Of a DNA stretch of 64,000 bases, positions 25,885-30,039 are shown one piece after another. Position 1 is the stretch's first letter. Every line of letters begins with the position of its first letter. The stretch is taken from the sequence record PQ510734.1. The stretch is one strand, 5' to 3'. This stretch comes from Escherichia phage A6-6. Made by a program: the position numbers and the translations under genes. The notes beneath the pieces were generated by a model that was not told where the DNA came from, did no database searches, and saw only the letters and a list, made by a program, of their open reading frames with translations.

Positions 25885-27978
25885 ATGGAACTCATTACAG
25901 AATTATTTGACGAAGATACTACTCTTCCGATTACAAACTTAAATCCAAAGAAGAAAATACCGCAAATTTTTTCAGTTCATGTTGATGACGCAATTGAACA
26001 GCCAGGCTTTCGTTTATGTACCTATACATCTGGAGGTGATACTAATCGCGATTTAAAGATGGGCGATAAAATGATGCATATTGTTCCTTTTACATTAACT
26101 GCTAAAGGCTCAATTGCTAAATTAAAAGGTCTCGGTCCAAGCCCAATTAATTATATCAATTCAGTTTTTACTGTTGCAATGCAAACAATGCGTCAGTATA
26201 AAATTGATGCCTGTATGCTTCGTATTCTTAAATCTAAAACTGCTGGTCAAGCTCGGCAAATTCAAGTTATTGCTGATAGACTTATCCGCAGCCGTTCAGG
26301 CGGCAGATACGTCCTTCTTAAGGAACTTTGGGATTACGATAAAAAGTATGCATATATTCTTATACATCGCAAAAATGTATCACTAGAAGACATTCCAGGA
26401 GTTCCGGAAATTAGTACCGAGCTCTTTACTAAAGTTGAATCGAAGGTCGGCGATGTTTATATCAATAAAGATACCGGAGCTCAAGTAACTAAAAATGAGG
26501 CAATTGCAGCATCTATTGCGCAAGAAAACGATAAACGTTCTGATCAAGCTGTAATCGTTAAAGTTAAAATTTCCCGTAGAGCAATTGCACAAAGTCAGTC
26601 ATTGGAATCTTCTAGATTTGAAAGTGAATTATTCCAGAAGTATGAATCTACCGCAGCTAATTTCAATAAACCTGCTACAGCTCCTTTAATTCCCGAAGCA
26701 GAAGAAATGAAGCTTGGAATTAATTCATTAGCTTCTAAAACTAAGACAGCAAAAATTATTGCCGAAGGAACTGCAGATGAACTTCATTATGACTATAAAT
26801 TCTTTTCAAAAAGTGAGGTTAATGAAGTTTCTGAAAAAATTAAAGATGTAATTCTTAATGCGATTAAAAATGAACCAACTACTTCAATAAAATGTTTAGA
26901 GAAATACGCAGCAGCCGTTAATCAATTCTTTGAAGAATATAAAGATAATTGGCTTGATAAACATAATAAAACCCGTAAAGGACAGCCAGATGAAGTCTGG
27001 GAAGAAATAACTAAAAATTCCTGGAACGCAGCAAAAACTAAATTCCTCAAACGAATGATTTATAGTTTTTCTGGAATTGGTGCAGGTCCAATGATTGATA
27101 TTACTATTGCCCGTGATGGTTCTAAATATACTCCATCACAAAAGCGCGGCATTAGAGAGTATTGTGGTTCAGGATATACTGACATCAATAATCTTCTTTT
27201 AGGACGCTACAATCCAGAACGATATGATGTAATGAGTGAAAAAGAAATTGAATCTGCTATAAATAACTTAGATTCAGCTTTTGAAAATGGTGACCGTATA
27301 CCAGAAGGCATTACAGTTTATCGTGCTCAAAGCATGACTGCTCCTATATACGAAGCATTAGTTAAAAATAAAGTATTCTATTTCAGAAATTTTGTATCTA
27401 CTTCTTTAACTCCTATCATTTTTGGACGTTTTGGAATTACGCATGCTGGTATTGGTCTTTTAGAACCAGAAGCTCGTAATGAATTGACAGTTGATAAAAA
27501 TGAAGAAGGAATAACTATTAATCCAAACGAAATAAGAGCGTATAAAGAAAATCCTGAATACGTTAAAGTTCAAATAGGATGGGCAATTGATGGAGCTCAT
27601 AAAGTTAATGTTGTATATCCAGGAAGTCTCGGAATAGCAACAGAAGCTGAAGTTATTCTACCACGCGGATTGATGGTCAAAGTCAATAAAATAACTGATG
27701 CTTCTAATAACGACGGAACAACATCTAATAATACAAAACTCATTCAAGCTGAAGTTATGACTACGGAAGAACTCACCGAATCAGTAATTTATGACGGTGA
27801 CCGTCTAATGGAAACTGGTGAAGTAGTTGCAATGACAGGTGATATTGAAATAGAAGACAGAGTTGACTTTGCATCATTTGTTTCATCAAATGTTAAACAA
27901 AAAGTAGAATCATCTCTTGGAATTATTGCGTCTTGCATAGATATTACAAACATGCCTTACAAGTTCGTTCAAGGATAA
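25885..27978 (+). CDS. alt: Alt, head-packaged ADP-ribosyltransferase
   Basis: about 697 aa (MELITELFD...); ART motifs FVSTSL and EAEVILPRG; late promoter upstream. Confidence 0.85.
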   Translation: MELITELFDEDTTLPITNLNPKKKIPQIFSVHVDDAIEQPGFRLCTYTSGGDTNRDLKMGDKMMHIVPFTLTAKGSIAKLKGLGPSPINYINSVFTVAMQTMRQYKIDACMLRILKSKTAGQARQIQVIADRLIRSRSGGRYVLLKELWDYDKKYAYILIHRKNVSLEDIPGVPEISTELFTKVESKVGDVYINKDTGAQVTKNEAIAASIAQENDKRSDQAVIVKVKISRRAIAQSQSLESSRFESELFQKYESTAANFNKPATAPLIPEAEEMKLGINSLASKTKTAKIIAEGTADELHYDYKFFSKSEVNEVSEKIKDVILNAIKNEPTTSIKCLEKYAAAVNQFFEEYKDNWLDKHNKTRKGQPDEVWEEITKNSWNAAKTKFLKRMIYSFSGIGAGPMIDITIARDGSKYTPSQKRGIREYCGSGYTDINNLLLGRYNPERYDVMSEKEIESAINNLDSAFENGDRIPEGITVYRAQSMTAPIYEALVKNKVFYFRNFVSTSLTPIIFGRFGITHAGIGLLEPEARNELTVDKNEEGITINPNEIRAYKENPEYVKVQIGWAIDGAHKVNVVYPGSLGIATEAEVILPRGLMVKVNKITDASNNDGTTSNNTKLIQAEVMTTEELTESVIYDGDRLMETGEVVAMTGDIEIEDRVDFASFVSSNVKQKVESSLGIIASCIDITNMPYKFVQG

Positions 27979-27981
27979 ATC

Positions 27982-30039
27982 ATGGAACTTATTACAGAAT
28001 TATTTGACGGCGCTTCGGCGCCGGTTGTTAACTTAAATCCTAAGCATAAAATACCTCAAATTTTTGCTATTCAAGCCGGTGAAGAAAGTGTTCTCCCTGG
28101 ATTTAGATTTTGTACATACACCTCTGGTGGTGATACAAATAAAAACGTTAAGCCAGGCGATAAAATGATGCATATCGTAATGATAGGTGTCAATGAGAAA
28201 CTATCATTAGTTAAGCTTAAAAACTTGGGTGGAAATCCAATTGGTGTCATTAATGCCGTTTTTGATACTGCTCTTCAAACAATGAAACAGTATAAAATCG
28301 ACGCATGCCTATTCCGCGTACTAAAAAGTAAAACAAATGGCGCAGCTCGTCAAATGCAAGTTATTGCTGACCGTTTAGTACGTACTAAGGGAGCAGGTCG
28401 ATATGTTCTTTTAAAGGAAATCTGGGACTATGATAAAAAATATGCATATATTATGGTTTACCGTAAAAATGCCAATTTAGAAGACATTCCAGGTGTACCT
28501 CCTATTTCAACTGAGTTATTCACAAAAGTTGAATCAAAGGTTGGTGATGTTTATGTAGATGTTAAAACAGGTAATGCTGTTCCTAAAGCTGTTGCTGTTG
28601 CTGCTTCTATTGCTTTAGAAAATGATAAGCGCACGGATCAAGCTGTTATTCAGAAAACTAAAATTAGTCGTCGATTAGCAGCACAAGCTCAATATTCTAC
28701 TGTTGATGCTTCACTTCAGGGTGATAGCTTCGCCGCTAAGAAATATCAAGAGTTTGAATCTAAAGTTCCGGTATATAAAGCAGAAGGACCAATGAACTCT
28801 GGCGTTATTCAGATTGGTTCCAACTTCGGCAAAGGAGCTATCGGTGGTATGAGAAGTGCTTCTCGTTTTAAATCTAACGATTATGAACTAGAAAGCTTTC
28901 GAAATCATATTGCATTGGCCCATGCACGTTTACGTGATCCGTCTATCAGACTGCAGAGCGATATAACACATCAAGGTTCTCAAGAATATTTAAAGAATAA
29001 AGAATTTTTTGATTATAAAACCGATAAAATTTTGAGCGATCTCGCTGACATTAATATTTCTAATAGCTTTGATGTTATTAAGAAAATTATCAATGATTTA
29101 GTTAAAGGTTCTAAAGCCACGCCAGACGAAAAGGTAGCTATTATTCAATTTGTCATGAATAGCATTTATAAATTGATTAATGAATCTGCTGCCCAGGCAT
29201 ATGAATACGCAAGCACCGAAGTAACTCCAAAAGGACTGACTCAGGCTGAATCTGATGTAATTGAAGATTATTGTGCAGATTCATATGTTGAAATGAACTC
29301 GTTCCTTTTGGGTAAACCAGATTCTACCCGTGAAGAATACATGGAACGAGCTATTAAACACATCGAGACGTTGGATTCTGCATTCGCCAAAGGATCAGTT
29401 CTTCCTCCAGGAACTACGCTTTATCGTGGACAAGAAGTTACTTTTAAAACTTTACGCCATAATATTGAAAATAAAATGTTCTATTTCAAGAACTTCGTAT
29501 CAACATCGCTTAAACCAAATATCTTCGGTGAGCATGGTAAAAACTATATGGCTCTAGATGATTCTGGCGCAGTATTTTCTGGCGAAGGAGAAGGTTCTGT
29601 TGATGCAGAAGATTTGATGCATATGGGTAGTCATTCTACATATGCCAATGAAGATGCTGAAACTAGCGTAGGTATGGTAATTAAAGGGGCTGAGCGAATC
29701 AAAGTTATCGTTCCAGGTCATTTATCAGGATTTCCATCAGAAGCTGAAGTTATTCTACCGCGTGGAATTTTGTTGAAGATTAATAAAGTAAGCACGTACA
29801 TGATGAAAGAAACTGCTTATAACAAGTATCTAATCGAAGGTACAATCGTTCCTCCTTCTGAACAATTAGAAGAATCAGTATATGATGGAGACCATCTAAT
29901 GGAAACTGGTGAAGTTCGTCCAATGGCTGGATTTAATCAATTCCTTGTAGAAGAATCAAAAGAAGAGGAAAACGAAGTTTCTCAAATCTTGGCTTCTTTG
30001 GTTAACATCAACGGAATGTCTAAAAAGTTCAAGATGTAG
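27982..30039 (+). CDS. Alt-like ADP-ribosyltransferase paralog
   Basis: 685 aa; same N-terminus MELITELFD, same FVSTSL and EAEVILPRG motifs; divergent middle region. Confidence 0.8.
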   Translation: MELITELFDGASAPVVNLNPKHKIPQIFAIQAGEESVLPGFRFCTYTSGGDTNKNVKPGDKMMHIVMIGVNEKLSLVKLKNLGGNPIGVINAVFDTALQTMKQYKIDACLFRVLKSKTNGAARQMQVIADRLVRTKGAGRYVLLKEIWDYDKKYAYIMVYRKNANLEDIPGVPPISTELFTKVESKVGDVYVDVKTGNAVPKAVAVAASIALENDKRTDQAVIQKTKISRRLAAQAQYSTVDASLQGDSFAAKKYQEFESKVPVYKAEGPMNSGVIQIGSNFGKGAIGGMRSASRFKSNDYELESFRNHIALAHARLRDPSIRLQSDITHQGSQEYLKNKEFFDYKTDKILSDLADINISNSFDVIKKIINDLVKGSKATPDEKVAIIQFVMNSIYKLINESAAQAYEYASTEVTPKGLTQAESDVIEDYCADSYVEMNSFLLGKPDSTREEYMERAIKHIETLDSAFAKGSVLPPGTTLYRGQEVTFKTLRHNIENKMFYFKNFVSTSLKPNIFGEHGKNYMALDDSGAVFSGEGEGSVDAEDLMHMGSHSTYANEDAETSVGMVIKGAERIKVIVPGHLSGFPSEAEVILPRGILLKINKVSTYMMKETAYNKYLIEGTIVPPSEQLEESVYDGDHLMETGEVRPMAGFNQFLVEESKEEENEVSQILASLVNINGMSKKFKM

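Follow-up and report, generated by a model that had tools for sequence, protein, structure and literature searches.

How many ADP-ribosyltransferases (ARTs) does a T-even phage send into its host, and do they act on the same targets? The textbook count for phage T4 is three: Alt, ModA, and ModB. The question is raised by Escherichia phage A6-6 (sequence record PQ510734.1), where a stretch of 64,000 nucleotides, hereafter the window, holds two adjacent Alt-type ART genes. All coordinates are positions in the window, and all features lie on the plus strand unless stated otherwise. The first open reading frame (ORF), 25885..27978, is called copy 1, and the second, 27982..30039, is called copy 2. 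We consider it likely that the pair is an old tandem duplication of alt (altA and altB) whose products are both functional arginine-specific mono-ADP-ribosyltransferases, acting by the mechanism proposed below. From their sequences, both proteins are most likely packaged in the head, processed, and injected as arginine-specific enzymes.

Two Adjacent Paralogs of the Alt Family

The ORF list gives the first frame as 25882..27978 (698 aa, beginning MMELITELFD) and the second as 27982..30039 (685 aa, beginning MELITELFD). A start at 25885 makes copy 1 697 aa long, and this is the likelier start because a GAGAGG Shine-Dalgarno sequence (25874-25879) stands 5 nt from that ATG and because the annotations of T4, ime09, and T2 agree with it. 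An earlier note on this DNA had described adjacent Alt-type frames of about 697 and 685 aa, and both the lengths and the adjacency are confirmed by the ORF list. The two proteins are clearly paralogs, with 41% identity across 717 columns (BLASTP, E 2e-157), far past chance. Their identity is uneven along the chain. Counted in copy-1 residues, it is 68% over 1-238, 18% over 239-410, 34% over the ART region (411-632), and 42% in the last 65 residues. No match to the central 231 aa of copy 2 turned up in copy 1 or T4 Alt (tblastn, E<=1e-3, one place per record), in agreement with the divergent centre that the note had pointed out. The peptides that it had listed as shared were also all found in both copies: MELITELFD at residues 1-9, FVSTSL at 503 in copy 1 and 505 in copy 2, and EAEVILPRG at 587 in each.

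Assignment of both ORFs to the Alt family of R-S-ExE (C3/VIP2-like) ARTs is supported by profile searches and by the catalytic residues. The Pfam family PF03496 (ADPrib_exo_Tox) scored 129 bits with copy 1 and 72.3 bits with copy 2, against a cut-off of 23.4, and phrog_802, "Alt-like RNA polymerase ADP-ribosyltransferase," matched end to end with 906 and 851 bits, respectively. NCBIfam and PADLOC gave no matches. The precomputed Pfam family PF26846 is listed on homologs; the Pfam search of the window proteins was without it. The catalytic residues of copy 1 are R480 (27322-27324), S505-T-S507 (27397-27405), and E587-A-E589 (27643-27651), and those of copy 2 are R482 (29425-29427), S507-T-S509 (29500-29508), and E587-A-E589 (29740-29748). 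When the catalytic regions of both copies were aligned with those of T4 Alt, ModA, and ModB, four residues did not vary: the Arg, the leading Ser of S-T-S, and the two Glu of E-x-E. Across 121 homologs the three motifs are essentially invariant. Neither copy is disrupted, and the note's view of two intact catalytic triads holds.

In R-S-ExE ARTs, ExE rather than QxE is the arginine-specific signature, and from the ExE both copies are predicted to be arginine-specific. Activity is abolished by E165A in ModA and by "E577A" in Alt (PMC11404850), and E165 of ModA falls on the second Glu of ExE in the catalytic alignment. The ExE glutamates of Alt are E574 and E576 in the NC_000866 translation, and the published E577A probably differs from E576 through a one-residue numbering offset.

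The fold was predicted for copy 2. The AlphaFold2 model (predicted local distance difference test score 74.6, predicted template modelling score 0.68) consists of an alpha/beta N-terminal domain (about 1-240), a helical middle (about 250-470), the ART domain (about 480-625), and a low-confidence tail. In Foldseek the ART domain matched Vis, Certhrax, C3bot, CDTa, and VIP2 at probability 1.00, and iota Ia as well, with E values between 5e-7 and 1e-4. By sequence, the family profile matched toxin chains in the PDB (C3-like, BECa, Certhrax, Vis, and CdtA), whereas a PDB search with the single copy-2 sequence gave no match; the toxins are reached by the family profile and by the fold search only. 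Neither sequence nor fold searches found a structure of Alt in the PDB.

These C3/VIP2/iota-like toxins (Vis, C3bot, Certhrax, CDTa, VIP2, and Ia) have the catalytic fold and motifs in common with copy 2, with template modelling scores of about 0.6 normalised to the toxin, but their sequence identity to it is only 13-19%. They lack the N-terminal and helical region of about 470 aa and the gp21-processed termini of the Alt proteins, and they are delivered by secretion or binary-toxin pores rather than by injection from a phage head. T4 ModA and ModB align with both copies at the same R-S-ExE catalytic residues. They are, however, single-domain early proteins of 200-207 aa, unpackaged and encoded elsewhere in the genome. 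The window proteins are not members of the ModA/ModB family, since the identity of 15-16% is limited to the catalytic core and since they are multidomain proteins of 685-697 aa.

Constraint on Copy 2

A duplicated gene may also be on its way out. Copy 2 could be an incipient pseudogene or a purely structural core protein without catalysis, as might be thought from its lower Pfam score (72 against 129 bits) and from T4 and about 91 records that have only a frameshifted stump of it. Its sequence makes this very improbable. The 685-aa ORF is intact in seven genomes out of seven, with a ratio of nonsynonymous to synonymous substitution rates (dN/dS) of 0.02-0.05 at dS up to 0.28, at least 401 records carry copy 2, its R, STS, and ExE residues are intact, and an ART fold is predicted for it. 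Copy 2 is thus under strong purifying selection and is not decaying; the dN/dS together with the intact ORF rules out a pseudogene, and the selection analysis has already largely refuted the wider idea of a decaying or non-catalytic duplicate. For comparison, copy 1 has a dN/dS of 0.01-0.09 within an allele class.

The T4 Locus and the Stump of Copy 2

The earlier note had left open whether T4 carries the second copy. The arrangement in the window differs from that in T4, which retains only a 5' remnant of copy 2, annotated as alt.-1 and alt.-2. The order in T4 is 30, alt.1, alt, alt.-1, alt.-2, alt.-3, 54. In the window it is gene 30 (ligase), alt.1, copy 1, copy 2, alt.-3, and then the converging genes 54 and 48, the synteny 30 - alt.1 - alt being common to both. 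The window belongs to an ordinary Tequatrovirus; over 24 kb its identity to ime09 and ESh26 is about 98%.

T4 Alt (gpAlt, NP_049811; 682 aa) and copy 1 are orthologs, with 72% identity overall, the same late promoter, the same ITE-6/LTE cleavage motifs, and the same R/STS/ExE residues. Copy 1 is 99.6% identical to T4 Alt over residues 1-238, 31% over 239-410, 67% over 411-632, and 94% in the tail. These identities make copy 1 a mosaic when it is set against T4 Alt. The central cassette that differs from T4 Alt, residues 239-410, occupies window positions 26599-27114. Because of the mosaic identity, and because the copy-1 alleles combine freely with full or deleted copy 2, this central segment behaves as an exchangeable cassette. 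Copy 2 has the same architecture as T4 Alt at 42-45% identity, but its central domain is unrelated and it has no intact counterpart in T4.

What T4 has instead is a fragment. The genes alt.-1 and alt.-2 (NP_049810 and NP_049809) correspond to the 5' 350 nt of copy 2 at 97% DNA identity. T4 DNA matches the window at 97% over 27963-28329 and then resumes at 30020-30435. The breakpoints fall on two direct repeats of 9 nt, CTAAAAAGT, the left one at 28321..28329 and the right one at 30020..30028. Between the two CTAAAAAGT repeats T4 is missing 1699 bp, and the frame is shifted by the loss of one more nucleotide in an A-run. The PHROGs derived from Alt.-1 and Alt.-2 (phrog_23015 and phrog_15247) fit the copy-2 N-terminus with 138 and 131 bits, far better than they fit copy 1. 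That alt.-1/alt.-2 duplicate the start of alt is already stated in the T4 GenBank note, which calls the duplication old, and by Nolan et al. 2006. By these alignments they are what remains of copy 2.

T4 is the only locus in which the breakpoint was mapped. Among the other loci, contigs L007 and L008 encode the same translated stump product (a 61-aa alt.-1 ending GDTNKTL...), which occurs with either copy-1 allele, and one ancestral deletion spread by recombination fits this occurrence.

Distribution and Age of the Pair

At least 401 phage records cover 80% or more of the 1.69 kb absent from T4, and in 401 the central 231 aa of copy 2 are found with an identity of at least 90%. The T4-type deletion junction was found in 91 phage records, natural isolates included. 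A scan of IMG/VR returned only 5 loci, little beyond the phage collection. T4 is thus the exception, a deletion derivative, and the full tandem pair is the usual T-even state; classical T2 has the same pair of 697 and 685 aa. In this respect T4 is atypical, and its three-ART textbook count probably understates what most T-even phages inject.

The tandem pair is already known and annotated and is not new. Many records annotate "Alt-like RNA polymerase ADP-ribosyltransferase (x2)" or alt_1/alt_2; tandem Alt-like pairs are annotated in T2, RB14, RB51, ime09, and others, and copy 2 goes by "alt.-2" or "alt_2" in other genomes. The catalogue therefore gains nothing from a pair that is annotated in hundreds of T-even genomes and will not surprise specialists, and the T4 remnant has been on record since the annotation of the T4 genome. 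Two allele classes of copy 1 exist, one of 697 aa (T2-type, to which the window belongs) and one of 682-684 aa (T4-type), with a dN of 0.21 between them. Both are found with full and with deleted copy 2, which indicates that the locus recombines freely.

The duplication is older than the genus. Phage JS98 (Dhakavirus, EF469154; deposited 2007) is annotated with alta and altb, and its order 30 - alt.1 - altA - altB - alt.-3 - 54 is identical to that of the window. Copy 1 finds its best match in altA of JS98 (648 against 293 bits) and copy 2 in altB (601 against 329 bits). Given these best matches and the same synteny, the duplication predates the split of Tequatrovirus and Dhakavirus, and copies 1 and 2 are taken as orthologs of altA and altB. 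The JS98 proteins are nevertheless only about 48% identical to the window proteins, and the STS motif of altB is a variant.

Probable Late Expression and Processing by gp21

A T4-type late promoter, TATAAATA (25854..25861), stands 31 nt upstream of the copy-1 ATG. In a comparison of ten loci it was found at -31 in eight and at -36 in T4; the tenth locus, L008, was not assessable, being anchored on the second Alt start. The gap between the stop of copy 1 and the ATG of copy 2 is 3 nt, and the AAGGA Shine-Dalgarno sequence of copy 2 (27971..27975) lies within the last codons of copy 1. Neither the terminator and promoter scans nor the ten-locus comparison found a terminator or a conserved promoter between the two genes. 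With nothing in front of copy 2 that would end transcription, and no conserved promoter to start it anew, we infer that the copies are co-transcribed late. A second TATAAATA inside copy 1 (27258-27265, 717 nt upstream of copy 2) was considered as a late promoter for copy 2 and rejected as not conserved. Three loci with a full copy 2 (L004, L005, and L010) lack it, and it is therefore probably a chance match; L007 and T4, which have the stump only, lack it too.

T4 Alt is a protein of the scaffolding core, present in about 40 copies and injected with the DNA (PMC9958956, PMC9026906). The protease gp21 cuts it at ITE-6 and LTE-619 to give a protein of 68.2 kDa (PMC5694885), a mass that we reproduced by calculation from the T4 Alt sequence. 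The note had taken MELITE for a gp21 cleavage-type motif, as is borne out by the cut at ITE-6 in T4 Alt. It had missed a second, C-terminal motif (LTE-619 of T4), which is kept in both copies. Aligned with T4, the motifs are ITE-6 (25894-25902) and LTE-632 (27772-27780) in copy 1 and ITE-6 (27991-27999) and LEE-631 (29866-29874) in copy 2, and the predicted mature masses are 70.2 and 69.1 kDa. In 20 diverse homologs E6, E631, and the YDGD..E.GE block that comes next are invariant. The case for packaging and processing of copy 2 in the manner of Alt is good but indirect, coming as it does from motifs and their conservation.

The same region was read in JS98, where alta and altb (L012 1642-5856) start with MTEQLNEVF and MMENLNEVF, that is, M(T/M)E.LNEVF and not MELITELF. 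The N-terminal propeptide keeps L-x-E followed by V/L-F despite its differing sequence, and altA and altB have L-x-E at both ends. The N-terminus would fit conservation of a gp21 site and not of the peptide as such.

Copy 2 might instead be an active ART that is left out of the head and works late in the producing cell, for example, on host or phage proteins during assembly. Presence in the virion has been shown for T4 Alt, the ortholog of copy 1, only, and proteomic evidence for copy 2 was looked for in the searchable literature without success. We nevertheless hold this to be quite unlikely. Copy 2 keeps the identical MELITELFD, the aligned C-terminal LxE, and the YDGD-LMETGE propeptide block, which are invariant in the family and have no obvious use in an unpackaged protein, and it would share the late promoter of copy 1.

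Proposed Mechanism and Substrates of the Two Enzymes

In the mechanism that we favour, with both enzymes packaged and injected, one late message from the TATAAATA promoter at 25854 would carry both genes, and copy 2, 3 nt behind copy 1, would be translated from its own Shine-Dalgarno sequence. The shared N-terminal module and the terminal propeptides would bring both proteins into the scaffolding core of the prohead. There, by analogy with the T4 Alt sites, gp21 would trim each twice, behind Glu6 (ITE) and behind the conserved LxE that lies about 55-65 residues short of the C-terminus. Both would be injected with the DNA and would modify host proteins by ADP-ribosylation ahead of all phage gene expression. 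Copy 1 should act like T4 Alt, modifying RNA polymerase alpha and many other proteins. With its non-homologous central helical domain (about 240-470) and its different loops, namely the ADP-ribosylating turn-turn (ARTT) loop and the loop after STS, copy 2 would most likely recognise a different set of host substrates. It would be an accessory gene, deleted in T4 and about 90 other records by slippage between the two 9-nt repeats.

The earlier note had raised the possibility of different host targets. In addition to the central domain, the ARTT-loop residues before ExE differ between the proteins, being GSLGIAT in copy 1, HLSGFPS in copy 2, and GSLAPSN in T4. Because these residues differ and the central domain has no detectable homology, the sequences suggest different targets for copies 1 and 2, that is, a different substrate range for copy 2.

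The opposite could also be argued, namely, that copy 2 is packaged and active but redundant, hitting the substrates of copy 1 (Arg265 of RNA polymerase alpha and others) and simply raising the dose of injected ART. The catalytic motifs FVSTSL and EAEVILPRG are identical in the two proteins, their N-terminal modules are 68% identical, and T4-type phages dispense with copy 2. T4 Alt is moreover promiscuous according to the T4 GenBank note and to Depping 2005 as cited elsewhere. A pure dosage copy is, however, expected to be homogenised or lost, whereas these lineages have stayed apart from a time before Tequatrovirus and Dhakavirus split, both are under strong purifying selection, and their central domains are non-alignable. 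We therefore find a role in dosage alone doubtful.

Several points weigh against two injected enzymes with distinct targets. The L/I-x-E motif is short and occurs 7-10 times per protein, so that its conservation alone is weak evidence of cleavage. The packaging, cleavage, catalysis, and substrates proposed for copy 2 are all extrapolated from T4 Alt, and the searchable literature yielded no experiment on copy 2, functional or proteomic. Divergence of substrates is not readable from sequence. Lastly, the natural loss of copy 2 in about 91 records means that it is dispensable on at least some hosts.

A bolder version of the distinct-target reading makes AltB a dedicated injected effector for a class of substrates outside that of T4 Alt, such as a host defence or toxin inactivated on entry, or a non-protein target. 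We think this unlikely. If it were true, T-even phages would differ in host range partly through the presence or absence of the gene (about 400 records with it and about 90 with the T4-type deletion), and the activity would have been hidden from 50 years of work, T4 having lost the gene. In any case, a second, presumably injected enzyme that is conserved across genera under strong purifying selection, and for which we found no functional study in the searchable literature, is an easy and well-defined target for virion proteomics and ADP-ribosyl-proteomics.

Flanking Genes and Other Signals

Upstream of the pair, a homolog of alt.1 (62 aa, 25644..25832) matches Pfam PF24647, "Phage_blade," with E 7.5e-29. 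It has the position of alt.1 in T4, and its start overlaps the stop of the ligase gene 30. Next comes a GC-rich hairpin, AAAGGCC-TTCG-GGCCTTT followed by AATTTT (25831..25848), which was read from the sequence and is not listed by the consensus terminator scan. The hairpin upstream of alt is kept in nine of the ten loci, T4 included, L008 again not being assessable, and Nolan 2006 reported a conserved terminator upstream of alt. It is a probable terminator that would insulate alt from early read-through.

Downstream, an early-type sigma-70 promoter, (G)TTTACA-17-TATAGT (30040..30068), lies directly after the stop of copy 2 and precedes the alt.-3 homolog (96 aa, DUF5498, 30100..30390; PF17602, E 1.4e-64), a separate early gene outside the ART pair. 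A bidirectional hairpin terminator (30395..30416, no strand assigned) was found by the terminator scan between alt.-3 and the converging gene 54. In T4, mutants with a C-terminal extension of alt.-3 escape the CmdTAC defence system (PMC11618068). The alt.-3 product of the window ends in ...AAFISFRK, the same C-terminus as in T4.

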